Under the pieces are notes generated by a model, which was not told the origin of the DNA, did no database searches, and saw nothing but the letters and a program-made list of their open reading frames with translations. Source: Candidatus Curtissbacteria bacterium (GTDB lineage Bacteria; Patescibacteriota; Microgenomatia; Curtissbacterales; GWA2-41-24). From it: a stretch of DNA of 64,000 nucleotides. Both the position numbers and the translations under genes were made by a program. Shown here in pieces: positions 753-25,364 of this stretch. The stretch's first letter is position 1. Every line of letters starts with the position of its first letter. The stretch covers positions 6,208 to 70,207 of the forward strand of contig JAUSJC010000010.1 of the NCBI GenBank assembly GCA_030647775.1. Direction: 5' to 3'.

Positions 753-1892
753 ATGCTCTTGAAAATTTTCCTGTCAGTAATTCTTGGTCTCTTAACTTTC
801 ACAACTGTAATTCCAAAACCGTCTCTTGCTGCAGAAAGCGATCAATGCTCCTTTGAGACAAATCCCCCGGCAGACACATGGAATTCTGAAATGGATTATA
901 AAAATATATCTATTAGAATTGGCGCCGCTTTAGCACCAAAGACTAAATATTACGTGGTATACCGAAAATACAATGACACGTTTAAAAATATACGCATTGG
1001 TGAAGGCATAGCTAACGATCAAGGAATCATTGATTCATCCGATCCATCATTTAAATCTAATTACGACAAGGGAGTTTTAAGAGACTACATGGTAGCTCCG
1101 GGAACGCACAGTATTGTCATATTTGAAGGCCCTGGTACTAATAGCAAAATAATCTGTAGCAAAACTTATAAAATTCCGTATTTTGAAACATTGAAATGCA
1201 CAATCGAGGCAAATAAAACAGATAAAAGTTATGGACCCGGCGAAAAGGTTAGTTTCAAGGGCAAATTTTCCATTGAGAAATGGGATAAAACACAAATATC
1301 TTACGCAAATAAGAACATTTCGGTTCAACTTTTAAATAAAAAAGGTGACAGAACAGGCGACTATTATGACAACAACATCACAACAGATAGTAATGGTAAT
1401 TTCGAAATAAGCGATTCGGATAAAATTAAAACTCCTGCAATCACCAATAATGATATTGGTTGGTGGAAACTTAAGGCTGACGAAAAAGATGATATAGGCA
1501 AAAATAGAAGCAAAGAGGCCTGTTATGCTGATATCTATGTCTCCAAAAACCCTAACGAGCCGGTTTCCGGTTCCCCTCCAACTGGTGACGGCGGCAAAAA
1601 CCCTTGTATTAGTGGAACATGCCAAACTGCTCTTGGCCCAATCAAAACAGACCCGGCCGAATTCATTAAAACAATTCTTGGGATTGCCATCGGCCTAGCC
1701 GGCGGTATTGCCTTAATCTTTATGGTCATTGGCGCAATCAGAGTATTAATCTCTTCCGGCGACCAGCAAAAACTGACCGGCGGTAAAGACATGATCGTCG
1801 CCGCTGTTTCCGGTCTTCTGTTTTTGATTCTTTCCGTCCTTATATTAAGATTTATTGGAACAGGCCTCCTAGGAGGAGTCCCGGGACTTTAA
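753..1892 (+). CDS. Secreted protein with a large N-terminal extracellular domain fused to a C-terminal VirB2/TrbC-like pilin module (two hydrophobic helices around an 'SSGDQQKLTGGKD' loop).
   Basis: N-terminal signal peptide (MLLKIFLSVILGLLTFTTVIPKPSLAAE). The C-terminal ~90 aa share the TM-loop-TM architecture and 'ISSGD' loop of the five downstream pilin paralogs. Confidence 0.6.
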   Translation: MLLKIFLSVILGLLTFTTVIPKPSLAAESDQCSFETNPPADTWNSEMDYKNISIRIGAALAPKTKYYVVYRKYNDTFKNIRIGEGIANDQGIIDSSDPSFKSNYDKGVLRDYMVAPGTHSIVIFEGPGTNSKIICSKTYKIPYFETLKCTIEANKTDKSYGPGEKVSFKGKFSIEKWDKTQISYANKNISVQLLNKKGDRTGDYYDNNITTDSNGNFEISDSDKIKTPAITNNDIGWWKLKADEKDDIGKNRSKEACYADIYVSKNPNEPVSGSPPTGDGGKNPCISGTCQTALGPIKTDPAEFIKTILGIAIGLAGGIALIFMVIGAIRVLISSGDQQKLTGGKDMIVAAVSGLLFLILSVLILRFIGTGLLGGVPGL

Positions 1893-1893
1893 T

Positions 1894-2247
1894 ATGATCA
1901 ATTTTCAGCTTATTCCAAACGTTTATGCCGCCTGCGAAAGCTTTTCGAAGTGTCTCGAAGGAATTACAGTGCCAGGCTTAAAACCAGAGTTCAAGTCCGA
2001 AGGTCTTGTCGGTCAGCTCATCAGCACAATTCTCCCCATTGCCCTTGGCATCGGCGGCATGCTGACGGTTGTTTTTATAATTATCTCCGGCATCCAGTTT
2101 ATAACTTCCGGCGGCGATCCCAAAGGCGCGGCGTCCGCCAAAGACAGGCTCGTTTACGCCGTTATCGGCTTTATCGTCCTAATACTTGCCTACGCCGCTT
2201 TGCAAATTATAAGTGGGGTATTTTTAGGCAAAATCGGTATAGTTTAA
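1894..2247 (+). CDS. VirB2/TrbC-like T4SS pilin (117 aa).
   Basis: Signal-like N-terminus followed by TM1, an 'ITSGGDPKGAASAKDR' loop and TM2. Tightly packed with neighbours (stop and start 1 nt apart). Confidence 0.6.
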   Translation: MINFQLIPNVYAACESFSKCLEGITVPGLKPEFKSEGLVGQLISTILPIALGIGGMLTVVFIIISGIQFITSGGDPKGAASAKDRLVYAVIGFIVLILAYAALQIISGVFLGKIGIV

Positions 2248-2248
2248 A

Positions 2249-2818
2249 ATGAAGAATTTAATATTTATTATTTTTGCCGCTTTTTTGTTATCACTGTTTT
2301 TACCTGCAAGTTCCTTTGCCGATCAATGTCCTGCCGGATACAAACCAGATGCAGTAGATCTAGAAGGCATAAACACTTCTGTCTGCTCAAAAGATATACC
2401 TCCACCTTGCGATCCGGCCAAAGGAGAAGAAGATTTTTCGTTTACCGGAAGGAACATTTGTGTCGTCTCAACTATTAGCGGCCCGCCTGCACCTGCACCA
2501 CCAGGTCAACCCACCCAAGGCTCAACCAACTCCTTTGATATAAAAACAATCTTCCAACCTGCTAATCTCTTTGGCGATTTCGGCAACCTTTTAAGTTCCA
2601 TCGTCTCAATCCTTATTAGTGCTTCCTTCATAATCACCATTTTCTTTATCATCACAGGCGGCATTAAAATCGTTACCGCTTCCGGCGATATGAAAAAAAT
2701 CCAGGCGGCCCAAGGGACAATCACCTATGCTATTATTGGTTTAGTCGTAACTGTACTGGCTTTTGTCATTTTACAAGTCGTCCAGTACTTTTTCGGCGCC
2801 AATGTCGGAATTCTTTAA
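2249..2818 (+). CDS. VirB2/TrbC-like pilin paralog with an extended Pro-rich N-terminal region (189 aa).
   Basis: Signal peptide. The C-terminal 'ITGGIKIVTASGDMKKIQAAQGTITYAIIGLVV' helix-loop-helix matches its neighbours. Confidence 0.55.
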   Translation: MKNLIFIIFAAFLLSLFLPASSFADQCPAGYKPDAVDLEGINTSVCSKDIPPPCDPAKGEEDFSFTGRNICVVSTISGPPAPAPPGQPTQGSTNSFDIKTIFQPANLFGDFGNLLSSIVSILISASFIITIFFIITGGIKIVTASGDMKKIQAAQGTITYAIIGLVVTVLAFVILQVVQYFFGANVGIL

Positions 2819-3226
2819 ATGAAAAAGTCCGCAATCATTTTTGTTTCACTTTTCACTTTGACTTTGACTCTCAAATCTCCCGCCTTTGCTCAACTCGGCA
2901 CAATCAAACCGCCGGCAGACTTTAAAATCCCAACAGCCGACGCCAATCCTTCCGTGTTTGTCGCTACACTTGTTAGAAACGGCATTACTCTTCTCCTTGT
3001 CGCTTCCTTTGTTATCGCCCTAATCTGGATAATTTTAAACGGCCTGCGTTTTATCCTTGCCCAGGGGGACGAAAAAACTGTCGCCTCTGCCTGGACCCAG
3101 ATTTACTGGACGCTAATTGGTATGGTAATTATCATGGGCTCTTTTGCTATAATCAAAATGGTTGAAACATTTTTTGGTGTGTCAGTGCTATCTGCAGACT
3201 TGAAATTGCCGCATTTACCGCAGTAA
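2819..3226 (+). CDS. VirB2/TrbC-like pilin paralog (135 aa).
   Basis: Signal peptide 'AFA'. 'ILNGLRFILAQGDEKTVASAWTQIYWTLIGMVII' TM-loop-TM. Confidence 0.55.
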   Translation: MKKSAIIFVSLFTLTLTLKSPAFAQLGTIKPPADFKIPTADANPSVFVATLVRNGITLLLVASFVIALIWIILNGLRFILAQGDEKTVASAWTQIYWTLIGMVIIMGSFAIIKMVETFFGVSVLSADLKLPHLPQ

Positions 3227-3238
3227 AGGGGGTGAGAT

Positions 3239-3697
3239 TTGATGATAAAAATAATTAAAAATACTATCCGCTATATGTCACCGGTATTATTACTGCTGAC
3301 GATTCCGGCAATCGTTATGGCTCAAGCTCCCGCAACACTTCCCGGCGGCAATACTACAACCATAACTCAAACAAGTGGATCTATTCCTATCCCGACAGCT
3401 TTATCACAAACAGGTGACATTACTGTCGTCATTGGCGGCATCATTAGGTTTATTCTTGTTACCGCCTTCGTCATTGCCTTTATCATGCTTTTGGTCGGTG
3501 GCATCCGCTGGATCCTGGCAGGAGGAGATGAAAAAGCTGTCGAAAAGGCCAGGAACACAATAACGGCCGCCCTAATTGGTTTGGTAGTTGTCCTTGTTGC
3601 TTTTGCTCTTATCAGGTTAGTAGAGCTGTTTTTTGGCGTAAATATCATTTCCGGCCTGACGGTTCCAAGAATCAGTCCATTGCAAACACCACTGTAG
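3239..3697 (+). CDS. VirB2/TrbC-like pilin paralog (152 aa).
   Basis: Strong RBS (AGGGGGTGA) upstream. 'LVGGIRWILAGGDEKAVEKARNTITAALIGLVVV' TM-loop-TM. Confidence 0.55.
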   Translation: MMIKIIKNTIRYMSPVLLLLTIPAIVMAQAPATLPGGNTTTITQTSGSIPIPTALSQTGDITVVIGGIIRFILVTAFVIAFIMLLVGGIRWILAGGDEKAVEKARNTITAALIGLVVVLVAFALIRLVELFFGVNIISGLTVPRISPLQTPL

Positions 3698-3701
3698 GCC
3701 T

Positions 3702-4049
3702 ATGCCGCTTTTTATACTGATAACACTTTTTGCAGTAGTTTTTGTTGCGCCGGTTTATGCCCAAACACCTGCACCGCCGGCCCAGATTTCGAATATTGTT
3801 AACGTCCTGGAAAATATCATCAAACTTTTAGCTCCCGCGGCCGGCATCGCCTTTTTTATCATGCTTCTTGTCGGCGGCTATAAATTTATCACTTCCGGCG
3901 GCGACCCAAAGGCGGTCGGCTCCGCCCGCTCCACTTTAACTTATGCCGTCATCGGCATCATTTTAGTCGTCGCCTCCTGGCTAATCCTCCAGTTAATTGC
4001 CACCTTCACCGGCGCCGACGTCACAACCGTTACAATTCCTACGAAATAA
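3702..4049 (+). CDS. VirB2/TrbC-like pilin paralog (115 aa).
   Basis: 'LVGGYKFITSGGDPKAVGSARSTLTYAVIGIILVV' is nearly identical in its loop to the 1894 paralog. Confidence 0.6.
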   Translation: MPLFILITLFAVVFVAPVYAQTPAPPAQISNIVNVLENIIKLLAPAAGIAFFIMLLVGGYKFITSGGDPKAVGSARSTLTYAVIGIILVVASWLILQLIATFTGADVTTVTIPTK

Positions 4050-4095: not shown

Positions 4096-6969
4096 ATGAA
4101 AAAACTCGCCGCCGTTTTTCTATTAGTCATCTTCTTTGGCGCTTCGATTATTGCGACCCCTCTCCAGGCAGGCCATAATCTCCCGGGAAGCCCCTACAAA
4201 AATCCAGACCCGGTAAGGGCCCCATATGGTGACCCCCTGTTCACGACCCAACTTACCAAAGTAACTATGAAACCGATTGAGAAGAAGCTCGAGGGTTTTG
4301 GATCAAACGGTCGCTATTCGGAAGCACAACAAGTAACTCTTGCACATACTTTTGATATTCCTGTTAATTTCGCTGAAGTTTCCGCAATATTCGCCAAATC
4401 TAACTCTGATTATCTGGAAGGCAAATTCCAAGACCAGGATCACCAAAACCAAAATCTGGTCAATTCAAACTCACAAAAATTTAATGAATTCTTTGGCCCC
4501 AGCCAAAAGCTTATGCCAAAAATTATGACAGATGAACTCAAGGTTGAATATATCAACTATGTCAAAGATCACGAGAACCTTCCGGAATACAAAACTAAAA
4601 TTACCGATATCGAAGGCAAAAATTCCAAAACCGTTAGTGATCTGGTGTCCCAATTTGGGATACCAGATTCATCAAAAATCGGATCCGATACATGGGGAAA
4701 ATATTGGGCTAAAATTCCGACAGCTTTTTCTCAACCATATTCCGGGTTTATGGTATTTAGAGTTGTTGACGGTAATAAGGAAAATGACCAAATATTAAAA
4801 CAAGGCACTTGCCCTGATAACGAAAACAACGACAGTCGAATGATTGATTTTGTTCTTCCGGAATATTTCCGGACTGCGGCAACCGCCAACGAATTAAATA
4901 AAATAATTCTCCCGAAAGCAGCCCAATCCGCGCAAAAAAACTTTTTAAAGGAGGCCGTTTCCGGTGTTATTAATAACCTCTCGCCGTTCAAAGATTCCGC
5001 TATTTCTAAAACTTTAGAAAAATTCTTAAGAAGAAGCTTCAATAATCTGAACCCTGTCAAAATTGTTTATGCGCAGACATCGGAGGAAGAGTTACCCCCC
5101 GAACTCCCACCAGAACTCCTACCTTACCGGGAACAATGCCATGCGCCAACGGAATTTCAACTAAAAGATAACCCGGGTTCTGGCCCTTTTTACTCTCTCC
5201 CGGAATTATCGGTACTTATCCCTACCCACCCCCCGCAACTCAATCCCCTTGTTTTTACTAAGAGAAAAAATCCCCAGCGCACAAAAGACCCGGTAACCGG
5301 GGAGAGCTGCAACAATATAGATACTCCCCGCAAAATAGACAACGGTAAGTTTGTAAATTGTACTTTTAAAAAAATCTACGAAAGACAGCTTACAATCGCC
5401 ACGCCAGAGGACGCCCAAGCTCTCGGATGGGATTACTGCACAGAAGGTAAAGATTTGGACGGTAATCCAAGTGGTGTTTCTACATGCTACTTAACTGTAA
5501 GAGTTTACCCGATCTTTTACGTTCCATGGCTTTCGTCAATTTGGAACGATACGGTTTACTCGGACAAAAATGATCCGGCTATTATCTCCGGTGCCCAAGA
5601 AACCGGCCGGCCGGGAATCTTCGGTCTATTTACATCCCAAGGGACAGAAAACTTTATATTCCCGGATGGCAAAAATTTGCCTAGCTTAGAAGATGGCTCG
5701 CGCGATATTAAACAACGTTTTATCGGCGCGGTCGATTGCAACAAGGAATTTATCAAAAATTTTGCTCTGTTACCAAAAGCCCTGCAAGGAAATGGCACAA
5801 GCGGGTGCAATCTAAAAACAAGTAATCTGCCCGGAACCCCAGGCGCCTCGGGTACGCTTGATTTCTATGTTAAATATGGCGACACAAGCATTATTCCGAA
5901 AGACCCCGAAGCAATTAAAAAACTCGCCAACAGTTCGTGGCCGGACAACAACACCAACAGATGGGATTATGTTGTGGACAAATGCGCTTCAAATGGTATC
6001 AGCCCCGCTTTCTGCATCGCCATATGGTGGAAAGAAGGTGGTTTTGGCGGCCTGCTCCCGGGAGGAGGCCGCGCCAATAGCGAATTCGGCTGTTTCCCCG
6101 GCGGCAACACCAACCTTAAAGTCAACTTTGAAGATAGTCTAAACTGCTTTGTAAAATTTACCGCCCAGGAACACCCATACAATCCTCAAAACCCTTATGG
6201 CTCATTTTACGATTGGGTTAAATACTTTTGCGGGCCTTTTTCAAAAGGCTTGTGTACACATGACGATGACGTAAGTAAAGAACACCCAAATTTTCTGCCA
6301 GTTTTAGAAAGTGTTTATAATTCTGTTGCGCCCGGCCAAATTATTTTTGTTTCCAACCCCAACCCGGGCAATCCGGGAACCACTCCGGTTCCCATCGCCG
6401 ATGAACTCTTCAACTTCAAAACAGGTGATAAAGACTGGACCGCTCCGGAGAAAGCGGCAATGAGCCAGACCGCAGGGGTTGCGAATAAATCAGCTGTCTG
6501 GAAAACTCTTGTCTTTGCCGCGGGCAAAATCAATCTACGCAGAGGTACCACAGACCCCGAATGCCCGGATACCTGCTCTGGTTTAGCGCAAGATCCAAAC
6601 ACGCTTCTGATTCGCGACCCCTTCTTCGACCACCCGTCAAGAACTCTCTCCGGCCAAGTTTTTATTATGACTCACGAACTCGCCCATATAATTCAATACC
6701 GCAACCCGTCAATCCTCAATCAGTACAAAAGTAGTGAGGCTTACAAAGAGTTCGAAGATAAAGGCGTAATCAGAAGTTATTTCCTCTGTCCCAACGTAAA
6801 ACCCGGACACTTCTGTGCCAACGGGGTGACGGCGGAAAATGAGGACTATGGGGAAATGGCTGGAAATTATGTCGCGGATCGCGATAGCTATCTGGTGGAC
6901 TTCCCCACAGAGTACCCGCAACACTATAAATTCGCCCAAGATGTATTGTTTGGAGGAACAACATTTTAG
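4096..6969 (+). CDS. Large secreted multidomain protein (957 aa) with a C-terminal HEXXH zinc-metallopeptidase-like motif and a possible lysozyme/SLT-like motif.
   Basis: Signal peptide. 'VFIMTHELAHIIQY' (HEXXH) near the C-terminus. 'SPAFCIAIWWKEGGFGG' loosely resembles the SLT catalytic Glu region. Cys-rich. Confidence 0.6.
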   Translation: MKKLAAVFLLVIFFGASIIATPLQAGHNLPGSPYKNPDPVRAPYGDPLFTTQLTKVTMKPIEKKLEGFGSNGRYSEAQQVTLAHTFDIPVNFAEVSAIFAKSNSDYLEGKFQDQDHQNQNLVNSNSQKFNEFFGPSQKLMPKIMTDELKVEYINYVKDHENLPEYKTKITDIEGKNSKTVSDLVSQFGIPDSSKIGSDTWGKYWAKIPTAFSQPYSGFMVFRVVDGNKENDQILKQGTCPDNENNDSRMIDFVLPEYFRTAATANELNKIILPKAAQSAQKNFLKEAVSGVINNLSPFKDSAISKTLEKFLRRSFNNLNPVKIVYAQTSEEELPPELPPELLPYREQCHAPTEFQLKDNPGSGPFYSLPELSVLIPTHPPQLNPLVFTKRKNPQRTKDPVTGESCNNIDTPRKIDNGKFVNCTFKKIYERQLTIATPEDAQALGWDYCTEGKDLDGNPSGVSTCYLTVRVYPIFYVPWLSSIWNDTVYSDKNDPAIISGAQETGRPGIFGLFTSQGTENFIFPDGKNLPSLEDGSRDIKQRFIGAVDCNKEFIKNFALLPKALQGNGTSGCNLKTSNLPGTPGASGTLDFYVKYGDTSIIPKDPEAIKKLANSSWPDNNTNRWDYVVDKCASNGISPAFCIAIWWKEGGFGGLLPGGGRANSEFGCFPGGNTNLKVNFEDSLNCFVKFTAQEHPYNPQNPYGSFYDWVKYFCGPFSKGLCTHDDDVSKEHPNFLPVLESVYNSVAPGQIIFVSNPNPGNPGTTPVPIADELFNFKTGDKDWTAPEKAAMSQTAGVANKSAVWKTLVFAAGKINLRRGTTDPECPDTCSGLAQDPNTLLIRDPFFDHPSRTLSGQVFIMTHELAHIIQYRNPSILNQYKSSEAYKEFEDKGVIRSYFLCPNVKPGHFCANGVTAENEDYGEMAGNYVADRDSYLVDFPTEYPQHYKFAQDVLFGGTTF

Positions 6970-6972
6970 TTT

Positions 6973-7320
6973 ATGGACGAAACAAACCGCCTGCAAGAAT
7001 CCAGAAGAATCGCTCTCCCGCTTGCTATTGTCATTGGAATTATTCTTTTAATCTCAATGGTTATAATCTTCGGGGTCCTAAATAAGAAAAGCCCTCCGCC
7101 GGGCTCTCAAACCCGCGAAAAGGTTATTTTAAACCTGCCCCGTCTTACTGCCGACTATTCGATTGTCTACGGAGAAAGAACAGACCATATTTACATCAAC
7201 CTGATTAACGAACCGTACGACCAAAACTATCAAAAGGCCATCAAATGGCTAAAGGACCAGGGCGCGGATATTGAAGAGCTAAATATCCAGGTTACTCCCG
7301 AACAGGCCCTTGACAACTAA
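6973..7320 (+). CDS. Small bitopic membrane protein, hypothetical.
   Basis: Single N-terminal TM (LPLAIVIGIILLISMVIIFGVL). Start lies 4 nt after the preceding stop. Confidence 0.45.
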   Translation: MDETNRLQESRRIALPLAIVIGIILLISMVIIFGVLNKKSPPPGSQTREKVILNLPRLTADYSIVYGERTDHIYINLINEPYDQNYQKAIKWLKDQGADIEELNIQVTPEQALDN

Positions 7321-7360
7321 CGCGCCAATTTCACGGACTTATCCCTCAAAGCAAGTAGAC

Positions 7361-7450
7361 TGTCATCCTCAACTTGATTGAGGATCAGATTCTCGCAGTT
7401 TACCCTGAAATGGATTCCCGCTTTCGCGGGAATGACAATTGAAGGGCGAG
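7361..7450. repeat. Two adjacent hairpins of the 'GTCATYC-stem-loop-stem-GAATC' REP-like family (family C), in opposite orientations.
   Basis: 'gtcaTCCTCAActtgaTTGAGGAtcagattc' and 'gattcccgctttcgcgggaatgac'. The same frame-and-loop design (loop 'cttga') recurs at 28995. Confidence 0.45.
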
Positions 7451-7701
7451 AATGACACTTGTTGTGAAAGGATAAATACCGATTTCACCATCTTGCTCCC
7501 GGTATCTCCCAATGTTAATCTAAATCTACATTCTTAAGCTCCGAAGTCTGTGACTCGCCCTTCCGTAACTTTACGTGAAGGAGGGAATTCAGACACTGTA
7601 CCGCAACCGTCATAGTCGGGTCGAAGGCTTAAGAAGTAAAAATCAGTCCTCGTGTTAAGGACATGCTTTGGCAAACCTTCTCGAGGCGAGGAGGTTTTTT
7701 G

Positions 7702-8838
7702 ATGGCCGAGCGAACCGCAGTTTTAGATAGACATATACCACCATTCGAAGGATCGCCGATCCCCGAAGCACAGCTTGGCTATAACATCCGCTTTGACCGC
7801 CAGGATTATCAAACCCTCGCATCCCAAAGGCCATATCTTTCTCCCCAAGAATTCCAAAGACGCTCCGATCAGCTAGATCTTCGAACCACACACAACCTCC
7901 AAACAATGCTTGGCGAACGTTTCACCGTCGAAATTTCCAAAGTTGAGTATCATCTTATCTCGGGGCAGCTACAAAACCCAGACCACGACGAACCGTTTTT
8001 AGAAATTATCAAACGCGGCCAAAAATTCCGCCAAGAACATGGCTCAAAAGAAATACCCCGTGAAGCGGCGGAAGCCGAAGGTTTTGCTAAGGTTCAAGAA
8101 ATACTAAATACCAGATATACAGAGCCATGCGATCCTAAAGGGCCTAACCAGATACCAGATATTAAAGTCATCGTTGTCTCCCCGCGCGGCCCGAAAGGCT
8201 CAATTTACCAGCACAATTTTTATGACGTTTACTCCCGAAGTTATGATGGCGCAATTACTATGTCCCGCTATACGTCAAAACTTTCTTACGAAGAATTTTA
8301 TCAATCTGCCCGATCAATCGACCCATTATTGAACCTATCCCAAAACCCTACCGACGCCGAATTTTTGGCAAATCCGCTAATCACCTATCAGTCTTTGGAC
8401 CAAATCCAGAAAATCTTTTGCCCACAAGAAAAAGTGATGACGCAAAAAGAATATCAAATGCTGCTCGAAACGTGCGGGTTTTTATTTACAACCTACATAA
8501 ACTGTCTTATAAATGGCTCACCGTTGGCAGAAATCCAAAAAGTCTATAACACCCTATTAAACTTTGCGGATGTTTGGCCAAATACCGTACCAATGCAAAA
8601 CACGGATCAGATTATTTCTCATTACGGAATACTACCGGTTCGCGTTGTCGCCGCCGGCTGCGGTATTCAAAGCGGCTCGGACTCACAAAATTACTCTTCC
8701 TGGTCTGTCGCCGAATTTGGCAAATGGTTTACGTGTCCTAAATGCAACTACGAAGCAACGGGCCCTGTTGGCAATACTTGCCCTGGCTGTGGATTGACAA
8801 AAGAAGAATTTGCCAAAGAATCCCTCGTTTGCGCCTAA
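7702..8838 (+). CDS. Hypothetical protein with a C-terminal zinc ribbon (CPKCN...CPGCG).
   Basis: ATG at 7702 is preceded by GAGGAGG at optimal spacing; the track's upstream start at 7663 lacks an RBS. C-terminal CxxC-x17-CxxC. Confidence 0.55.
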   Translation: MAERTAVLDRHIPPFEGSPIPEAQLGYNIRFDRQDYQTLASQRPYLSPQEFQRRSDQLDLRTTHNLQTMLGERFTVEISKVEYHLISGQLQNPDHDEPFLEIIKRGQKFRQEHGSKEIPREAAEAEGFAKVQEILNTRYTEPCDPKGPNQIPDIKVIVVSPRGPKGSIYQHNFYDVYSRSYDGAITMSRYTSKLSYEEFYQSARSIDPLLNLSQNPTDAEFLANPLITYQSLDQIQKIFCPQEKVMTQKEYQMLLETCGFLFTTYINCLINGSPLAEIQKVYNTLLNFADVWPNTVPMQNTDQIISHYGILPVRVVAAGCGIQSGSDSQNYSSWSVAEFGKWFTCPKCNYEATGPVGNTCPGCGLTKEEFAKESLVCA

Positions 8839-8880
8839 TTTGACGCCAGCCAACTTTCCCCCTAATATGGAATTAGCTGT

Positions 8881-8962
8881 CGGGTTATTGGGCTGTTGGG
8901 ACATTAGGCTATTAGGAAGAGAGCACCTACCTAATCACCCACTAACCTAAAAACCTAATCGG
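8881..8962. repeat. Imperfect palindromic intergenic element, family A (TTGGG/TTAGG half then CCTAA half).
   Basis: 'ttattgggctgttgggacattaggctattagg ... cctaatcacccactaacctaaaaacctaatc'. Related copies at 14841, 15250, 27436 and 29630. Confidence 0.45.
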
Positions 8963-8968
8963 TCTGCA

Positions 8969-10465
8969 ATGAAAACTGTCCTTATAAAAATATCTTCAAT
9001 TCTTTTTATCTTTTTGTTCCTGACAATCGCATTTACTCCTCTCGCTCAAGCTCAAACATCGAAATGCACCCCGTCTGCAGATCTCAAAAATAACACCATT
9101 GACGCTATTAACCAATGCGCCATTGAAAGCGGTGCTTTTGATGATAAAATTTTTAATCTCAACCAAATTGCCGGCACAGTCGATAGCTTAAGTACTCTAT
9201 TAACCGGCCAATCTCAACTCCACCCGGCAACAAACAGCATCACCGCAGACGCCGGAGCGCTCACGGCTTCCGGAAAACTTATTGCCAGCCTTTATTCCAT
9301 TCCTCCCGTCTCCGGAGTCCAATATTTTGCACAACAAATTCAAAAATTTAACCCTGTCCAACCAGCTTATGCCCAAACATCTGCCGGAATCGGTTTTAAC
9401 GCACTATCACCGGTTCAAGATGTCTGGGCCGCTTTCAGGAATTTCTCTTACGTCGGCTTCGTCCTTGTCTTTATCGTCATCGGTTTTATGATTATGTTTC
9501 GCTCTAAAATTTCTCCGCAGGCCGTCGCCACCATCCAAGATTCACTGCCAAGAATTGTTGTCGCCCTCATCCTTGTCACCTTCAGCTACGCTATCGTCGG
9601 GTTGATGATTGATTTAATGTTCGTCCTCTTAAACGTTACAATTAACGCTTTAGGTGCTGCTGGCCTTACAACCGCCAATGCAGAAAAAGTAACCAACTCA
9701 AATGTCTTTAGCGTTGTCATGGGTTCACAAAAAGACATTTTTGGTGCGGTATTTGAAGCCGTTTCCGGCATTATTAAAAATGTATTTGATAATAATTGGT
9801 TAACTAAAATAATCGGGGTTCTCGGAGGATCAATTTTTGGGGTCATAGCAGGAATTGCCATGCTCTTTGTGATGTTCCGAATCTTTATAATGCTTTTGAT
9901 GTCCTACATAAGTATCATCATACTGACTATATTTGCTCCTTTTATATTACTTTTCCATGCCCTGCCCGGCAATAACGGCGCTAAAGAATGGTTCAAACAA
10001 GTAGGAGCCAACGTCGCCGTTTTCCCGACAGTTGCCTTAATGTTTATTTTGGCAGGGATGTTAAGCGGTATAGCATCACTCGGAGGCACAGCTGGCAGCC
10101 AGTTTAGTTCTGGTAACGTGGGGCAATTCCCTCTCCTTTCCGGGGGATTAGGACTTACAAATATCGGCAGTCTCATTGGTTTGGGTATTTTATTCATGAC
10201 ACCCGGAGCAGCAAAGATGGTTAAAGAAAGATTGGGAGTTAAAGAGGGTGCAATCGGAGCAGGCGGAGCCATGGCCGGTGCAGCTCTTGGCGCCGGAGCC
10301 GGCGCACTTGGCAGACCATTTGGTGCCGCTATCAACCCTGTCAGGCAATCACTCTCCTATCAATATGGGGCTGGAATGGCACAAAGAATCGGCAGATTTA
10401 CTGGTAAAACCGATAAAACCTCAACACCAAGCGAAGCAGAAGTAGAAGCAACCCAACGTTCTTAA
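8969..10465 (+). CDS. Polytopic membrane protein, VirB6/TrbL-like candidate (498 aa).
   Basis: Signal peptide, ~150-aa exported domain, at least five TM segments, and a Gly/Ala-rich hydrophilic tail, as in VirB6/TrbL. Lies within the T4SS-like locus. Confidence 0.5.
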   Translation: MKTVLIKISSILFIFLFLTIAFTPLAQAQTSKCTPSADLKNNTIDAINQCAIESGAFDDKIFNLNQIAGTVDSLSTLLTGQSQLHPATNSITADAGALTASGKLIASLYSIPPVSGVQYFAQQIQKFNPVQPAYAQTSAGIGFNALSPVQDVWAAFRNFSYVGFVLVFIVIGFMIMFRSKISPQAVATIQDSLPRIVVALILVTFSYAIVGLMIDLMFVLLNVTINALGAAGLTTANAEKVTNSNVFSVVMGSQKDIFGAVFEAVSGIIKNVFDNNWLTKIIGVLGGSIFGVIAGIAMLFVMFRIFIMLLMSYISIIILTIFAPFILLFHALPGNNGAKEWFKQVGANVAVFPTVALMFILAGMLSGIASLGGTAGSQFSSGNVGQFPLLSGGLGLTNIGSLIGLGILFMTPGAAKMVKERLGVKEGAIGAGGAMAGAALGAGAGALGRPFGAAINPVRQSLSYQYGAGMAQRIGRFTGKTDKTSTPSEAEVEATQRS

Positions 10466-10473
10466 AACCGGGA

Positions 10474-13400
10474 CTATTTCCCTGAAACCTGCGCGCTGGA
10501 TTGGCTAAAGACCCCTTTAAATAGCGCCCATAAGAAAACTAAAAAGAAAGGCATCAAGTTGCTCGGCTTTTTTAGTTCACTCCCCATCACCCGGATCATT
10601 TCCAGATATTCCTTCAAAGTCCTGATCGGTACTATACCGGGAATCCCAGCAAGCTTTAAATATTTCTCTTTCATTCTCTCCGCGTCCTTGTGGTCTAACC
10701 GGTTTGTAGCGGCAGACACATCAAGTATCTGTTCAATTTCCGCCGAAGGCATATTATATTCACGTCCCCACCAGTCTTTCCAATGCTTGCCCATCTCCTG
10801 ATGCATTGGAACCAGTAACTTCATCCACGGATGCATTCTTATCTCACGGGTTGAATAGAACATCTTACGGTTATTAATGCCCATAAAAGTTTTGGTATCG
10901 GGACTGTTTAAATACGTCTGGCAAGCGTCTGCCGCGAAATACTTCTTCGTTTCTTTTCTGTCTGTCCACCAGTCTCCCATATTGTATTTAATAATATTTG
11001 TTTTCTCATTACTAAAAACCTCGCTCCAGCTAATATTTTGAAAAGTTAACTCCCCGTCATCTACTAACTCCTCGAGTGCAACTCCCCTTACCCAACCCCT
11101 ATCATTGGAATCACCACCCTCCCAGTTATTATCTAAGCTTTTACCGCCATTCCACTTTCCAATGTCGAGCTTACGCCCGTTATCGATATTCTTCATCCTG
11201 TCTGCAACTACATTCGCAAAACGTCTACTGGGGATACCAGGCCTTGCAACAACCAGCTTGTTTGCAATACCAGCATCAACATCATCATCCATTCGCAGCT
11301 TGTCATTGATAAGTTTAATAAGTAAGCGGTTATTGCCCAGTATTCCGCGCCTTCTGCCAAGCATATGTTTCGTTAATATGTAGTTGGCGTCCCTTGGCCT
11401 GCCTCTTACCTCATTTTGTAAAAATTCACCATAATGGTCTACCATCCTGCCAAACCAAACATCCGAATAATTGTTAAAAACAAAAGCCCCAAGCTTTTTT
11501 CTGCTCCTGCCATTATCATCCTTAAACCATTCTCCCTTTTTTTTGTCTCTATCCCATATCCTTATGCCGTCATAATCGGAAAACCCTCCCAATGTCCAAG
11601 TTACGTTGTAACCGTTATTAATAACCTGATCCAAAAGCCCCGCCTGAAGAAATTCGTCAATCTTATCACCCGATAAGCCCATTCCACCCAATCTGGTTTT
11701 AAGCGCATCAAGCAGGTCTTTCTTTCTCGTCCTTAAATAATGATAATCAGGGTCTGTTTCCTTATAACCGTGAGCACCCAGTAAAGTAGTCTCTCGATAC
11801 CAATCCAAAACAACTTTTTCCGCATTGCTAGGTTTAGCCCAGTATTCATTTATTGCATCATCGCTGGCGCCAACCCCAATTTTTTTCTTTACATAACCCT
11901 TTATCTCATCCCTTAATCGATTAAGTTCACCACGATCGACTACTGCCGATTTATCAAAAAGGTTCTTAATCTCTTCCGGCACGGTAACAAAATCTGTAGT
12001 TATATCTACTAAAGTCAGGCCTTCGACAAGATTCATCTGTGCCCTTTCCTTTGAAAACCGCTCAAAATAAACCTTCATCGCAACATCCAGTAAGTTAAAC
12101 TTTTCCGTCTCGTAAACCGGATTTCCACTGGCATCAACAATAGGATTACCAGCGGCATCTTTTTTCTGAATTCGGGAAACGAAATCATCCCCGTTATGAT
12201 CTTGAAAAAACCTGTCGAAAAAGATTTTAAAAGTATCATCCTTCCATAAGTTATTGCCAGCAATCGCTTCAAGCACTTTATCCGGATCCATCGCGTGCCC
12301 CTCCATAGTCAGGCGCAGAGAATAAATCGCAATAACCGCGTCTCTTAATTCATCTATTTTCATTTTCAGCTCCATCGCCTCCTTCTTTTCCTTTCCTGTT
12401 AAAGTTTCAACGGGTATCGCGTCAGAAATTTGGGTGATTACTTGTCTCACCCGACTAACTTCTTCCTGCGTCGAATTACCCGATTCCAACCGCCTGAAAT
12501 TGTTTTGCACATTCTTCATTGAGTCTTGCCAGTCTTTTGGGATACCGTATTCTGACTCTCTAACAATATTCAATCTGACACCCTCAAAAGTCGTCGAGGC
12601 TCTCCATTCCAGAAGCCCTTCAGCCCCCGCCACAGCTGGACGGCTTTTTGCGTACTCATAAAGCTGATAGTCAAAATCAGGCAGATGAATATTACCGATA
12701 CTAAGAGACCCCTCCAACTCTTTAATTTTGATGTCAAGAGGGTTAAAAAGACGCGCCCTTACCCCCGGCCCCAAAGCCTGAGCCCTCCCTCGAAGGGCCT
12801 CATCCATCTCTTTGGATAACTTTTTAAGATCATCTCTTCTAGCTTTGGGTACAATGCTGTCCAAAATTGCTTGTCTCGGGGTCCCTTTTGCTAAAATCTC
12901 ATGAGTTTCAATAGCATTCCCCAAGTTCTTTACAAAACGGTACCCGTCACCTCCAACCGTAGCTAGCCTTCTTGCTTCGATAAATTGGAAATCGAGAACC
13001 TCCCTCCGTGCATCAACAGCATCCACCTGAATTATCGTCAGGGGCCCAATAAGTGAAGTCTTAACGAGTAATTCCTGTATTATCTTCTCCGTAGAACCCA
13101 GCTTGACTAAACGAGCCATAATTCTCCCTTTAGCAACTCCAAACTCAGCATCAAATGCAACAGTGTCAGCCATTATCCTTTGTATGGATTTCAATGTCTC
13201 TAGCTGTAAAAGGTTGTAATCAACCAAGGAGTCCCTGTAGCTTTCATAGTCCATACGTCTCATCTCCATCATGTCTCCCAAACGCTTCTCATAATCTGAA
13301 TAAAAATCTTCAAATTTCCGAAATATTTCAGGCCTATCATCGCTCGAGCCTAACGCTCCACGCATCTCCATATCATCTAATATTCCAAGCCTCCTATGAA

Positions 13401-14598
13401 GCTCTTCAACTTGGTCTGGACCCAAAGCAGCTGTTGTTGCACCGAATACTGTACCCCCTCCGGCAATTGCTGGAACAATCCGCATACCATTCTCCTCCGC
13501 CCAAGCTAACCGCTCATTCCTGCCCATCCCACCCCAAATATCCGGTGTCTCCAAACGCTTATCGACCCCTGCCCCCTTAAAAAATCTATTGATGTCACCA
13601 ACAACATCTTCGCTTTTATAAAGTGGATAATTGACAGCAACATATTTTCCACCTTCTGTTTCGTAAACTTCAGCGTTTGTATTAGGATCAATAAATCTCA
13701 ATTTAAAATCAGGATCAACCTCACCTGCAGGAAAAGCGGTCGTGTTGGATATTCCGCGACTGTTTAATAAATCCATCTTTTTGACTGGATCATCCCTGTC
13801 CCACGTATCGGGAAGTTTTACATTGACCCCTTGCGCTGTCAAGGCCGCCTCCGCAAGCTCCCTGGGCATATTCCATAGATGAGGATACGTTCCGACAATC
13901 TTCGGCCTTTCTCCGGTGGTATCTTCCTCCTTCGCTACTTTTCTTCCCCTATGTATCTCTTCCGCCTCGACGGCACCAACCACAACTCTTTTCCCAACTT
14001 TCTCCCTTGTCAAAGTCTCTTCTTCAAGATCTCTGGCTTTCTCGATCTTCAAACGGGCTAAGTCCTCTTCAACTTTTCTTTCTTTTGTTCCGGCACGGGC
14101 TTCGAAATCCTCATTCGCTGGTTCGGCAATATCCACATCCTCTTCACGCATAACCCCCTGGGCTTCAACCACAATATCGGCAGAGGACATCTTATCGACT
14201 TCTTCAAGCATATATCCCCTTTCCAAAAGAATGTCCTTAAGCCGCTTAAATTTCTCGTAAGGAACCGCAACTTGCCCATCGCCATCCCTCAACTCTGCTA
14301 GAATTTCTGCAGCCGCTTTTGCATCTTTAAACGGTAATTTTACTGGTTGTTTGTTTGGGGTTGGCTTTTCGTCCGACTTATAAGTTGCCGGTTTGGATTC
14401 TCCCCCCTGTCGACTTTTTTCTTCTTCGCTTTGCCTAGGAGATTTTTTGGCTCCCTTTTTATCGGCCTCCTTTTTGCCCTCATCTGTTCTCCTTTTCTTC
14501 TCGTTATCCAAACGGCGCTGCTCTCTTTTTTGTTCCTCGTCTCTTCCTGGGGTTTCTTCTGGCATATTCATATTATATCCAAAACTTGCTTCCGACAT
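10474..14598 (-). CDS. Giant orphan protein (~1374 aa) with a Lys/Glu/Arg-rich low-complexity N-terminus and a hydrophobic C-terminal tail. No recognisable catalytic motif.
   Basis: Single uninterrupted frame. ATG at 14598 is preceded by AAGGAAG; the track start at 14631 is a GTG. No Walker A or relaxase HxH motifs seen. Confidence 0.6.
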   Translation of the reverse strand: MSEASFGYNMNMPEETPGRDEEQKREQRRLDNEKKRRTDEGKKEADKKGAKKSPRQSEEEKSRQGGESKPATYKSDEKPTPNKQPVKLPFKDAKAAAEILAELRDGDGQVAVPYEKFKRLKDILLERGYMLEEVDKMSSADIVVEAQGVMREEDVDIAEPANEDFEARAGTKERKVEEDLARLKIEKARDLEEETLTREKVGKRVVVGAVEAEEIHRGRKVAKEEDTTGERPKIVGTYPHLWNMPRELAEAALTAQGVNVKLPDTWDRDDPVKKMDLLNSRGISNTTAFPAGEVDPDFKLRFIDPNTNAEVYETEGGKYVAVNYPLYKSEDVVGDINRFFKGAGVDKRLETPDIWGGMGRNERLAWAEENGMRIVPAIAGGGTVFGATTAALGPDQVEELHRRLGILDDMEMRGALGSSDDRPEIFRKFEDFYSDYEKRLGDMMEMRRMDYESYRDSLVDYNLLQLETLKSIQRIMADTVAFDAEFGVAKGRIMARLVKLGSTEKIIQELLVKTSLIGPLTIIQVDAVDARREVLDFQFIEARRLATVGGDGYRFVKNLGNAIETHEILAKGTPRQAILDSIVPKARRDDLKKLSKEMDEALRGRAQALGPGVRARLFNPLDIKIKELEGSLSIGNIHLPDFDYQLYEYAKSRPAVAGAEGLLEWRASTTFEGVRLNIVRESEYGIPKDWQDSMKNVQNNFRRLESGNSTQEEVSRVRQVITQISDAIPVETLTGKEKKEAMELKMKIDELRDAVIAIYSLRLTMEGHAMDPDKVLEAIAGNNLWKDDTFKIFFDRFFQDHNGDDFVSRIQKKDAAGNPIVDASGNPVYETEKFNLLDVAMKVYFERFSKERAQMNLVEGLTLVDITTDFVTVPEEIKNLFDKSAVVDRGELNRLRDEIKGYVKKKIGVGASDDAINEYWAKPSNAEKVVLDWYRETTLLGAHGYKETDPDYHYLRTRKKDLLDALKTRLGGMGLSGDKIDEFLQAGLLDQVINNGYNVTWTLGGFSDYDGIRIWDRDKKKGEWFKDDNGRSRKKLGAFVFNNYSDVWFGRMVDHYGEFLQNEVRGRPRDANYILTKHMLGRRRGILGNNRLLIKLINDKLRMDDDVDAGIANKLVVARPGIPSRRFANVVADRMKNIDNGRKLDIGKWNGGKSLDNNWEGGDSNDRGWVRGVALEELVDDGELTFQNISWSEVFSNEKTNIIKYNMGDWWTDRKETKKYFAADACQTYLNSPDTKTFMGINNRKMFYSTREIRMHPWMKLLVPMHQEMGKHWKDWWGREYNMPSAEIEQILDVSAATNRLDHKDAERMKEKYLKLAGIPGIVPIRTLKEYLEMIRVMGSELKKPSNLMPFFLVFLWALFKGVFSQSSAQVSGK

Positions 14599-14840
14599 AC
14601 AATCTTCCTTTCTATCGCCAATTATAATCACCTACCCTATAGTTGCTTGACTTTAACCTGACAGCCAATCTGACAATTTTGTCAGACGCTAAAAGCTAAA
14701 CGACAAACGACTAAGACAAGATAAAAATCAGTATTAATTTTCATGGTCAGTGTGAAAATCTGGGCCTATTTTGAGGCTAGATATTTCCACTTCTCTGCTC
14801 TTGTTTCATATGTTATGGTAACTTTGGTGACAAAGTTACC

Positions 14841-14925: not shown

Positions 14926-15318
14926 ATGGGTGATTTTACAAAACTTATTATTTGGCAAAAAGCTCACGATCTAACAATTAAGGTCTACGCTTTAACAAAA
15001 AAGCTACCTAAAACCGAAGATTATAGCTTGAAATCGCAATTGAGACGAGCTGCAGTCTCCTGTGAGTCAAACATTGCCGAAGGAGAAACCAGATACACTG
15101 ACGCAGCAAAAATCAACTTCTTTGTAGATTCAAGGTCATCCGGTGCAGAAGTTCAAAGTCAGTTGATGATTATGCGTGACGTTTATCCAGAATTATCAGA
15201 AGAATCCGAAGCATTACGTTTGGAATACGAAGATTTTTGCAAACAAACCAACAGCCTAATTTCGTTTAGAAGAAAATCTAACCTAATATCCCAAAATCCA
15301 AAAAACCTAACAGCCTAA
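14926..15318 (+). CDS. Four-helix-bundle protein (family formerly called 23S rRNA intervening-sequence protein).
   Basis: 'IWQKAHDLTIKVYALTKKLPKTEDYSLKSQLRRAAVSCESNIAEGE' matches the TIGR02436-type signature. Its 3' end is built from a family-A CCTAA half-repeat. Confidence 0.75.
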   Translation: MGDFTKLIIWQKAHDLTIKVYALTKKLPKTEDYSLKSQLRRAAVSCESNIAEGETRYTDAAKINFFVDSRSSGAEVQSQLMIMRDVYPELSEESEALRLEYEDFCKQTNSLISFRRKSNLISQNPKNLTA

Positions 15319-22734: not shown

Positions 22735-23790
22735 ATGAAATTATCAGATTTTTCGCCAACACCTAAAAAGATTCTGGCTACCTTGGCCACTATTCTGCTT
22801 CTCATTGGCCTGACCATTCTAATATTTTTAAGATACCAGTCCTCCAATAAAGAGACTCCTCCGGTAGTTATCCCCGGGCCGACTATCGTTCTGCCGCCGG
22901 ATGTTGCCAAACCGAAAATCGCCAACATTTCTTTTCAGTTTAAAGACCCCAGCCTTCCGGATAAGGTTAACGTCTACAAAGTGAACTACACGCTTGATGG
23001 CAAATTTGCAAATCAAGTTGCCGCAACTTTTTCGTTTCAAAATCAGCCAGAAACAACCAATGACGCACAAGGGAATACCACCATGACTTGGGAAAACCCC
23101 GGCGGCAGTGAAAGATTAAGTATTACTCTCGAAAACGGACTCGTACAGTACACTGCTTCTCCCACACATGGCAAGCCAGACATCGGCCAGCCGCCGCTGC
23201 CAACCATTACCTCAAAGGAACAAGCGGCTATTTTAGCCAACAGTTTTTTAAGAAACCATAACTTGCTTGCTCCGGGCCTATCCCCATCGACAGTTCTCCC
23301 GTTCATATCTTCAGAGGGTAAATACATAAATCTGGTAGCTGACCTGTCCAAGGCAAAACTTTTTCAGGTTAATTTTTCTGCCACCCTGGGGAACAATAGG
23401 ATTTACTACCAATTTGCAAACGACGCACCTGTTAGCGTCTGGCTTGATAATTTCCAATCGCCAACCAAAGTTGTCTACCAATACCCAATCCCGCTTACCG
23501 AAAAACCAACACAGAAACCAATTATTACAATCGATCAAGCAAAAAGTAAATTAGAACAAGGGGAAGGAACAATTGTCAATTTCGAACCAGGAATCCCCGA
23601 CCCGAAAAGCACGGAAGCAATGCAGTCGGCAACTTTAACAGACGCCCAGCTAGCCTACTTTGATGATAGTAGATCCGGTTTTCTCCAGCCGATTTTGGTA
23701 TTTAAGGGCGAAGCAATCTATCCAAAAGCAGGTAAACTACCAATTACTATTTATTTGCCAGCGCAGACAACTCAACCAACAAATAACTAA
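22735..23790 (+). CDS. Membrane-anchored exported protein, hypothetical; last gene of the plus-strand block.
   Basis: N-terminal TM (ILATLATILLLIGLTILIFL). Start lies 1 nt after the preceding stop. Confidence 0.5.
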   Translation: MKLSDFSPTPKKILATLATILLLIGLTILIFLRYQSSNKETPPVVIPGPTIVLPPDVAKPKIANISFQFKDPSLPDKVNVYKVNYTLDGKFANQVAATFSFQNQPETTNDAQGNTTMTWENPGGSERLSITLENGLVQYTASPTHGKPDIGQPPLPTITSKEQAAILANSFLRNHNLLAPGLSPSTVLPFISSEGKYINLVADLSKAKLFQVNFSATLGNNRIYYQFANDAPVSVWLDNFQSPTKVVYQYPIPLTEKPTQKPIITIDQAKSKLEQGEGTIVNFEPGIPDPKSTEAMQSATLTDAQLAYFDDSRSGFLQPILVFKGEAIYPKAGKLPITIYLPAQTTQPTNN

Positions 23791-24159: not shown

Positions 24160-24182
24160 TTGGAAATTCCAGAGCTTTAGCT
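24160..24182 (-). terminator. Hairpin overlapping the dnaN stop, followed on the minus strand by tandem AATTTCC heptamers.
   Basis: 'tccagagctttagctctgga'. No canonical U-tract, so weak. Confidence 0.3.
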
Positions 24183-25364
24183 CTGGAGTCTAACCGGCAT
24201 GATGATGTGGAAAAACTTTTCTTCTGGCAAAACTCCGGTTAATTTCCCGGGGTTTAAACTTTCAACCATCTCAAAATTAACTTCCTCGTCTTCAATAACC
24301 CCCAAGGCTTCCAGCAAATAACGGTAATTAAAAGCTATTTCTCCGCCGGCACCGGAAAGTTCAATCCCTATTTGCCCATTTCCGGAACCAACCTGGGCCG
24401 CCCCCGCTGAAACATTAAGTGATTGGGCTTTGGCGCCTCCGCCGGCTGGCGGATTCCCCGCCTGCCTGCCGGCAGGCATGGCTTCAAATTTTAAGCGCAA
24501 AATGCTTCCGGAATCTCTTGCAAAAATTGAGGCAATACGAACCACCTTAATAAACTCTTCTTTATTCACCCTTGCATGGCTCACAAAACTGGCCGGTATT
24601 ACTTTTTGCCAGTTGGGGAATTCTCCCTCAATAAGCCTCGATGTAAACTCAACTTCCCCCATCTTAAAACTTATTTGATTCAACCCTTCCGCCACCACAA
24701 TATCGATTACTCCTTCTTTGGCTCCTTCACCCCCAAGTTCACCACCAATTTTGGCAGCTTCCAAAATTGCCCTTGCCGGTACCACAATCTTGATACCCAA
24801 AGGGGGCGCCTCCAAAACCTTAACTTCATCAAAGCTCAACCTGTACCCGTCCGTTGCCACCATTGCCACTTTCCCTCCGCTAAATTCACACAAAACTCCG
24901 GTCAAAATTGGCCTTCCTTCGTCCTGTGCGGCCGCAAAAGCGACACGTGCTGCGGCTTTCGAAAAAACATCGGCCCCTATTTTTATTTTGTGCCCCCCCT
25001 CAATTTTGGGTATCGCCGGGAATTCCTCTGCCGCGATGGTTGCAAACCTTGCCTCGTATCCTTTTGTTAAAATCTGCACCTCTTCCCCTAATTTTTCAAA
25101 AACCACATCCCCCTCTTGCGGCAATTGGGAAATAAATTCCTGAAGCATCTTCCCCGAAAGGGTTACTTTCCCCTCGGCTTCCACCTCTCCCGCTATCGTG
25201 ACCTTCGTCGCTGTTTCCAAATTCGTCGAAAGGACCTCTATTTTACTTTTTGTTGCACTTATCAGGAGATTGGAAAGAATTGGTAAATTTGCCTTCACTA
25301 GGAGAGATTTGCCCGCAAGGAGCAGGGCGAGAGACATGTCTTTTTGTGAAACCGTGAACTTCAT
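24177..25364 (-). CDS. dnaN: DNA polymerase III beta sliding clamp.
   Basis: 'MKFTVSQKDMSLALLLAGKSL', 'ATDGYRLS'. Contains a ~25-aa Gly-rich insertion (PAGRQAGNPPAGGGAKAQ...). Confidence 0.85.
   Translation of the reverse strand: MKFTVSQKDMSLALLLAGKSLLVKANLPILSNLLISATKSKIEVLSTNLETATKVTIAGEVEAEGKVTLSGKMLQEFISQLPQEGDVVFEKLGEEVQILTKGYEARFATIAAEEFPAIPKIEGGHKIKIGADVFSKAAARVAFAAAQDEGRPILTGVLCEFSGGKVAMVATDGYRLSFDEVKVLEAPPLGIKIVVPARAILEAAKIGGELGGEGAKEGVIDIVVAEGLNQISFKMGEVEFTSRLIEGEFPNWQKVIPASFVSHARVNKEEFIKVVRIASIFARDSGSILRLKFEAMPAGRQAGNPPAGGGAKAQSLNVSAGAAQVGSGNGQIGIELSGAGGEIAFNYRYLLEALGVIEDEEVNFEMVESLNPGKLTGVLPEEKFFHIIMPVRLQS

Follow-up and report, generated by a model that had tools for sequence, protein, structure and literature searches.

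We analyzed a 64,000-nucleotide stretch of DNA from a Candidatus Curtissbacteria bacterium (contig JAUSJC010000010.1; hereafter the window), in which six genes for VirB2-like type IV secretion system (T4SS) pilins are followed on the same strand by an open reading frame (ORF) at 4096..6969 (+). The ORF is complete, running from an ATG start through 957 codons to a stop, and its product is identical to a deposited 'hypothetical protein Q7S45_02530' of Candidatus Curtissbacteria bacterium, encoded on a 527-kb contig, which puts the window on a Patescibacteria chromosome. It is a three-module protein of the T4SS/pilin operon, in which a lineage-specific core (module I) is followed by a predicted lysozyme-like domain (module II) and a predicted gluzincin metallopeptidase domain (module III). 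Judged by the conservation of its catalytic residues and by the predicted folds, the protein very probably serves this locus as a secreted envelope hydrolase with two enzymes, on whichever target, much as the secreted bifunctional hydrolase suggested in a first-pass annotation made from the sequence alone.

Quinonero-Coronel et al. 2025 (PMC12102498) describe the T4SS of Patescibacteria as monoderm-type and often located near dnaA; its VirB2-like pilins are divergent and come in tandem arrays of 2-11, particularly often in Microgenomatia. The authors report that VirB1 goes undetected by hidden Markov models (HMMs) in most pilin-bearing Patescibacteria genomes and suggest other glycosidases as substitutes. 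In a cultivated Saccharibacterium, which is the one relative open to genetic work, neither the T4SS nor its pilins are dispensable, and what they do is described as completely unknown (PMC10633639, PMC11665869).

Export signal and module layout

By inspection, the N-terminus has the n/h/c layout of a Sec-type signal peptide (4096..4170, +; amino acids 1-25, MKKLAAVFLLVIFFGASIIATPLQA, followed by GH). It opens with MKK, continues with a 17-residue hydrophobic stretch, and ends in TPLQA before a predicted cleavage site ahead of G26; there is no lipobox Cys. A hydrophobic N-terminus ending in A-x-A-like residues recurs in 15/15 members of the core family. The protein contains 18 Cys and carries AIWWKEGGFGG at amino acids 642-652 (6019-6051) and THELAHIIQY at amino acids 859-868. 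Both motifs are where the first-pass annotation had placed them, and the many cysteines and apparent signal peptide that it named are present as well. HEXXH arises by chance in ~1% of shuffles of the 957-residue protein. We regard both motifs as genuine because HEXXH is kept in 44-45/45 relatives and the Glu of the W-W-K-E-G-G motif in 116/117.

All modules are encoded on the + strand. Module I, a lineage-specific scaffold with conserved Cys, spans amino acids 26-573 (4171..5814), and the core alignment stops at C571. It is joined by a Pro/Gly/Thr-rich linker (5815..5847; KTSNLPGTPGA) to the all-alpha module II at amino acids 585-752 (5848..6351), and a second, Pro/Gly-rich linker (6352..6399; SNPNPGNPGTTPVPIA) leads to module III at amino acids 769-957 (6400..6966). 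Modules II and III were modeled together with AlphaFold2 (amino acids 575-957) from a 58-sequence alignment, giving a mean predicted local distance difference test (pLDDT) score of 90.4 and a predicted template modelling score of 0.81. The first linker has low pLDDT (model residues 1-10), and the score falls to 66 in the second (model residues 181-190), which lies between two domains that are separate in most relatives. The division into core, II, and III with Pro/Gly-rich linkers is thus visible in the alignments as well as in the model.

Whole-protein searches against Pfam, NCBIfam, and PDB sequences returned no match above threshold; the best Pfam affinity was to DUF6782 (E 0.25), with no other family at E<=1. 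Searches of PHROGs, phages, and plasmids likewise gave no match to the protein, which leaves an origin from a phage endolysin or a plasmid unsupported.

Module II, a predicted lysozyme-like domain

Structure comparison identified an all-alpha lysozyme-like fold in the modeled module II. The matches, with their comparison scores, were GH73 LytB (8.6), a C. difficile endolysin glucosaminidase (7.9), g-type lysozyme (7.0), MltF (7.0), FlgJ (6.4), and Slt70 (6.3). Glu647 (6034..6036, +), the predicted catalytic acid, is located four residues from the C-terminal end of the model helix 637-651. Among 117 relatives, W644 is present in 117/117 and E647 in 116/117, and the preceding position 646 is Glu in 108/117. 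The family consensus reads P-x-F-x-x-x-I-W-I-E-E-S-G-A, and the window protein, with W-W-K-E-G-G, retains the better-conserved Glu of the E-E pair. Two pairs of cysteines behave as disulfides in the alignment: C666 and C684 occur together in 98 sequences; for C712 and C720, 48 sequences have both, 50 have neither, and 7 have only one. Such co-varying pairs fit an exported protein.

The first-pass annotation had likened the Glu region to that of SLT enzymes. The likeness holds at the level of the predicted fold, but not at the level of sequence, as SLT (PF01464) did not match the protein at E<=1. Among the 65 domain II relatives, a cut-off of E<=0.01 gave a single SLT_3 match and zero SLT matches, and neither SLT nor a recurrent lysozyme family was among their 25 most frequent Pfam families listed at E<=1. 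Domain II is therefore a family without a Pfam or NCBIfam model. As assignments from a predicted structure go, the lysozyme-like fold is solid; the reaction may be that of a muramidase, a glucosaminidase, or a lytic transglycosylase.

Module III, a predicted gluzincin metallopeptidase domain

The model of module III adopts a zincin alpha/beta fold, the type in which a beta-sheet whose edge strand binds substrate precedes the active-site helix. Foldseek against the PDB placed anthrax lethal factor and C. difficile PPEP-1 first (probability 1.0; template modelling score 0.56 when normalised on PPEP-1), and the closest structures are lethal factor, PPEP-1/-2/-3, and MtfA, at identities of 9-19% (13-19% for the PPEPs). 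When the family was searched as a profile against the PDB, it matched 9urd at E 1.6e-4, lethal factor at E 0.006, and PPEP-1 at E 0.058.

HELAH (6673..6687, +), located on model helix 277-295, contains two predicted zinc ligands (H860 and H864) and the predicted catalytic base (E861). The profile alignment sets the family motif H-E-x-x-H opposite HEFGH of lethal factor (H686/E687/H690) and the family motif E-D-F-A-E exactly opposite E735-F-F-A-E739, in which we take E735 to be the third zinc ligand of lethal factor. The window protein has E916-D-Y-G-E920 (6841..6855, +) at this position, on a 'glutamate helix' comprising model residues 339-352 (amino acids 913-926). E916, 52 residues after H864, is the predicted third zinc ligand, and E920 a predicted second-shell Glu. 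A motif of the form E-[DS]-[FY]-A-E occurs in ~40/43 relatives, and the individual columns are conserved in 44/45 (H860), 45/45 (E861), 44/45 (H864), 36/42 (E916), and 36/42 (E920) sequences. Upstream of the glutamate helix, Tyr895 (6778..6780, +; conserved in 40/45) is a candidate counterpart of the catalytic Tyr that precedes the Glu ligand in lethal factor (Tyr728) and PPEP-1 (Tyr178), but the HMM alignment does not put Y895 opposite Tyr728.

As checks on the HEXXH, the first-pass annotation had named a third zinc ligand further downstream, conservation of the motif in relatives, and profile and structure prediction of the C-terminal part; E916, the near-invariant H860, E861, and H864, and the predicted gluzincin fold all speak in its favor. 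A metzincin assignment was rejected, as the extended HEXXHXXGXXH/D motif is absent (the sequence reads HELAHIIQYRN). Since the Pfam ATLF model did not match the protein at E<1, we do not call the domain a member of M34; profile and model point instead to a new family with a lethal-factor/PPEP-like fold.

Module I and its variable C-terminal slot

The core recurs in 15 protein clusters, the majority being stand-alone proteins 540-590 amino acids long. Scoring the core family profile against 5.8 billion proteins added zero new members, and a scan of species-representative genomes located the core in 15 genomes, the greater part bearing the label Ca. Curtissbacteria or Microgenomates. A same-strand array of 4-6 pilin genes directly precedes the core gene in 12/12 reference loci with upstream DNA, in loci L003 and L005, and in the window. 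Because this position recurs, we infer that the core is a dedicated component of the pilin operon.

What follows the core is variable. The C-terminal slot is empty in about half of the family, and is otherwise occupied by domain II (P0003), by II+III (the window protein), or by another module. An alternative module of 130-190 amino acids, found in P0002, P0004, P0005, and 5/15 reference genomes, carries the motifs E-S-G-[FYN]-N-P-N and A-W-G-L-[FY]-Q-M-G and gives sub-threshold Pfam matches to SLT or phage lysozyme. As a profile of ~148 sequences, it matches C-type lysozymes and nothing else (E 0.01-0.1), and the alignment takes in their Glu35 region. That one position on this scaffold can hold either of two different kinds of lysozyme-like module suggests that the slot is meant for a glycan hydrolase.

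We also considered whether domain II is a 'divergent SLT'. This was rejected in favor of an 'alternative lysozyme-like module', as hhalign detected no relationship between domain II and the SLT-like modules of the sister proteins (probability 0.4%). A 1530-residue core-family homologue at 4408-8997 of locus L020 has a ~620-residue internal repeat-like insertion and yet another C-terminal module.

The T4SS/pilin locus

The six VirB2-like pilin genes span 753..4049 (+) with tiny gaps between them. PF18895 (T4SS_pilin) is found in all six, with three reaching the Pfam cut-off and three just below it. The pilin array and the 957-residue protein are probably encoded in one operon, and no terminator-like site was found on the + strand between 3958 and the ORF at 4096 in a promoter/terminator scan whose site counts did not exceed those of shuffles and which we used only for this missing terminator. 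A conserved partner gene of 115 codons (6973..7320, +) starts four nucleotides past the stop; its product is 44% identical to that of the gene after P0003, the core + domain II protein of locus L005.

Further downstream lie a PrgI-like gene, a gene for a VirB4/TraG-type ATPase, an M23 + YkuD fusion gene, dnaN (24177-25364, -), and dnaA (25660-27012, -). With the six pilin genes directly upstream, these neighbors bear out the 'pilus locus' setting of the first-pass annotation. The window is a locus of the Patescibacteria T4SS type described in PMC12102498 and PMC10633639, namely near dnaA/dnaN, with PrgI, VirB4, and tandem divergent pilins. The M23 + YkuD fusion (19738-22734, +) is a 998-residue protein with Peptidase_M23, a YkuD L,D-transpeptidase-like domain, and a glycine zipper. 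The II+III cassette rides on the core protein, is single-copy in the window, and is distinct from this fusion, as had been supposed.

The first pilin gene (753-1892, +) encodes 379 residues, with an N-terminal extension of ~290 residues before the C-terminal pilin domain. The reference loci follow the same pattern of one long first pilin and five short ones.

Modules II and III in other candidate phyla radiation bacteria

We scored a II+III cassette profile against 1.84 billion representative proteins and obtained 209 relatives. In most of these the two domains are separate, with many architectures represented, whereas P0016, P0017, P0036, P0044, P0076, and P0077 have both. One relative, P0049, is assigned to Ca. 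Spechtbacteria. A cassette alignment scan of species-representative genomes gave no confirmed relative, so the taxonomic range of the cassette among candidate phyla radiation (CPR) bacteria rests on metagenome proteins.

The most frequent partner is Peptidase_M23, present in 16-17/65 domain II relatives and 7/38 domain III relatives. Immunoglobulin-like domains accompany both families (DUF7507 in 4/65 and 5/38, DUF11 in 4/65 and 2/38, respectively). A T4SS pilin domain lies on the same polypeptide as domain II in five proteins (3-4/65 by Pfam, 5 by phmmer) and was not seen with domain III. P0103, P0114, and P0126 begin with a T4SS pilin domain and end with an M23 peptidase domain, and between the two lie a long helical linker and then domain II; these are wall hydrolases built onto a pilin-like membrane anchor.

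Proteins with a transmembrane segment and an M23 domain carry II+III or II alone in P0016, P0017, and P0020, and the cassette occurs without M23 in P0044. Their contigs (L001, L002, L006-L008) contain T4SS pilin genes in 5/5 cases and PrgI in 3/5, and the genes flanking the cassette proteins are homologous to the window genes starting at 8969 and 22735. On the strength of these homologous flanks, the window M23 protein at 19738 fills the slot that M23+II(+III) proteins occupy elsewhere. The flanking gene at 8969-10465 (+; 498 amino acids) has its counterparts in L001, L002, L006, and L007, and the gene at 22735-23790 is homologous to the downstream neighbor of the transmembrane + M23 + domain II(+III) proteins.

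Comparison with known systems

T4SS-associated multidomain wall hydrolases are a known kind of protein. Like PrgK of pCF10, TraG of pIP501, and VirB1 of diderms, the window protein is encoded inside a T4SS locus and, as predicted, exported, and like PrgK and TraG it combines a glycan-cleaving lysozyme-like domain with a peptidase domain, both predicted here. PrgK has a LytM/M23-type domain, and in other CPR bacteria the II(+III) cassette sits on a membrane-anchored M23 protein. Unlike VirB1, PrgK, and TraG, however, the window protein has a predicted glycan-cleaving module that is not SLT/VirB1 by sequence. It further differs from PrgK and TraG in that its peptidase is a lethal-factor/PPEP-like gluzincin rather than CHAP or M23, and in that the carrier is soluble, with a 550-residue core and no membrane anchor.

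Neither catalytic domain falls into its nearest family. In contrast to GH73 (LytB, FlgJ, Acp, the C. difficile endolysin) and GH23 (g-type lysozyme, Slt70, MltE/F), whose models do not match it, domain II is Cys-rich and predicted to be disulfide-bonded, with an N-terminal [YF]-[GR]-D-[TS]-S motif of its own. Domain III has extra disulfide loops relative to lethal factor, PPEP-1 (Zmp1), PPEP-2, and PPEP-3 (MEROPS M34), and relative to MtfA (M90), and its substrate-specificity elements do not compare with theirs. The S-loop and proline-contacting residues that determine Pro-Pro cleavage by PPEPs are treated in PMC8610288. PPEPs have been reported only from Firmicutes (PMC8610288), whereas the domain III family is known from CPR metagenome proteins. 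Its best profile match is a Bacteroidota 'substrate import-associated zinc metallohydrolase lipoprotein' (9urd; also 4l7a), in which HEXXH and E-D-F-x-E align with domain III. That protein is a lipoprotein tied to SusCD-type import and has a different N-terminal half; as its function is itself uncharacterised, the match gives no lead on the substrate.

The core family, domain II, and domain III do not appear in the portions of Quinonero-Coronel et al. 2025 and Wang et al. 2023 available to us. What is new here are two catalytic domain families without a database model, one predicted to be lysozyme-like and the other a lethal-factor/PPEP-like zinc protease, together with a pilin-operon scaffold, specific to Curtissbacteria, on which lysozyme-like modules can be swapped. 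We know of no earlier secretion locus in which wall hydrolases are described as having a lethal-factor-like protease for a partner.

Proposed role and alternatives

We propose that the protein is exported by the Sec pathway as an accessory enzyme of a Curtissbacteria type IV secretion/VirB2-like pilus operon. The core would place it at the pilus or secretion apparatus, where module II would cut glycan with Glu647 as the catalytic acid and module III would act as a zinc endopeptidase, with H860, H864, and E916 binding zinc and E861 serving as the base. Together, the two enzymes could make a local cut in the glycan and in the peptide or protein part of a cell envelope, a job that VirB1, PrgK, or TraG hydrolases perform in other type IV systems and to which no recognised enzyme can be assigned in most pilin-bearing Patescibacteria.

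Several observations weigh against this proposal. The full core+II+III architecture was seen only once, and about half of the core family carries no enzymatic module, so the core has a function of its own. P0015, a distant core homologue, has no pilin genes nearby. Domain II lacks a sequence-level link to SLT, GH73, or any characterised glycosidase model, and the window protein departs from its family at position 646, which is Lys instead of the Glu of 108/117 relatives, and in a Gly-Gly that replaces the Ser/Thr-Gly of most. Finally, the enzymes closest in structure to domain III have protein substrates (MAPKKs, adhesins) rather than peptidoglycan, so a wall-peptide substrate is not implied.

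With respect to the target, the bacterium's own wall comes close to an even chance. By analogy with VirB1 and PrgK, the enzyme would remodel the wall locally for assembly of the T4SS or pilus, and the membrane-anchored M23 carriers in other CPR bacteria favor such self-wall action. The wall hydrolases of T4SSs open the wall locally for assembly of the machine (PMC12102498 and references therein). The 957-residue protein is a plausible candidate for the hydrolase so far undetected in most pilin-bearing systems.

A host-directed function is a rather unlikely but coherent alternative. The core would sit on the tip or shaft of a VirB2-like pilus and present the cassette, which would open the host wall or strip surface proteins for attachment, feeding, or injection. 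In the window the cassette is carried by a protein that is soluble and secreted and whose gene closes a pilin array, rather than by an M23 protein with a membrane anchor, and this placement, combined with a fold like that of toxins and adhesin proteases, favors host or surface-protein targets. Domain III resembles secreted toxins and surface-protein proteases (PMC8610288), a pilin is fused straight to domain II in some relatives, the C-terminal module can be exchanged like those of polymorphic effectors, and CPR bacteria are host-dependent epibionts for which effector delivery by the T4SS has been speculated (PMC11665869). Binding of the core to pilin, however, is hypothetical; in most other CPR bacteria the cassette is attached to an N-terminal membrane anchor and M23, as in PrgK and TraG, which are built to act on the cell's own wall, and no immunity-like gene was evident alongside the ORF on a cursory look.

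A bolder form of this alternative, which we consider doubtful, is a contact pilus armed with enzymes, in which the core would be a pilus-tip or pilus-associated adaptor that delivers interchangeable envelope-cutting modules to the host surface. These modules would be the lysozyme-like domain and lethal-factor-like protease here and the SLT/lysozyme-like domain in sister species, and they would break through the wall of the host and cut proteins on its surface. If such a pilus did exist, the Patescibacteria T4SS would gain a concrete role in attacking or tapping a host.

Processing of the cell's own surface proteins is improbable. Under this explanation, the PPEP-like domain III would cleave pilins or adhesins of the organism itself so that these mature, are released, or detach, with domain II as a wall-binding or wall-opening helper. 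It draws on PPEP-1, -2, and -3 being among the closest structures, as these enzymes cleave bacterial surface adhesins (PMC8610288), and on the co-orientation of the gene with six pilin genes, several of which encode long N-terminal extensions. Against it, identity to the PPEPs is only 13-19%, and M23, a frequent partner of domain III, is a wall peptidase. Moreover, most pilin loci lack domain III, which cannot therefore be a general pilin maturase.

Still less probable is that one or both domains are catalytically dead and only tether the core to the wall by binding carbohydrate or peptide. Such a role would suit K646, which takes the place of the near-invariant Glu that opens the E-E pair, as well as G648 instead of Ser/Thr and G919 in place of the Ala of E-x-x-A-E. 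The most conserved residues are nevertheless all kept (E647, W644, H860, E861, H864, E916, E920, and Y895); six relatives with Ala at 646 still have E647, and Gly occupies position 648 in the whole WWEEGGFGG subgroup.

Chance motifs in an unrelated secreted protein, or an assembly chimera, were rejected despite the singleton architecture and the occasional HEXXH in shuffles, because the motifs are near-invariant in >40 and >110 relatives and lie inside confidently folded catalytic domains, because each junction is separately attested (core+II in P0003; II+III in the six proteins listed above), and because the reading frame is unbroken on the 527-kb contig.

The evidence so far forces no surprising mechanism. 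Domains II and III, which recur on M23 proteins, pilins, or the scaffold, are candidates for the undetected hydrolase or for host-directed effectors. Their profiles could improve the annotation of CPR genomes, and the predicted catalytic residues (E647; H860, E861, H864, and E916) are exact targets for mutagenesis.

Further observations at the locus

Two large ORFs of the window, at 10474-14631 (-; 1385 amino acids) and 8969-10465 (+), lack a Pfam match but have conserved counterparts in related T4SS loci. Inside the T4SS locus of the window, a gene for a 130-residue '23S rRNA-intervening-sequence protein' (14926-15318, +; PF05635, E 1e-28) lies just upstream of the PrgI-like one. In L002, a related T4SS locus, a BrnT/CopG-type toxin-antitoxin pair (1409-1985) is located between the PrgI gene and the large genes.

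GC skew is negative on the + strand over almost the whole window, on both sides of dnaA/dnaN, with no sign switch at the presumed origin. An unusual strand composition disparity has reportedly been noted in a Microgenomates genome, to judge from the title of one paper. Lastly, SpoIID (PF08486) and DUF5657 (PF18901) genes recur beside the pilin arrays of L003, L006, and L007, and may be further conserved parts of the T4SS/pilin system.

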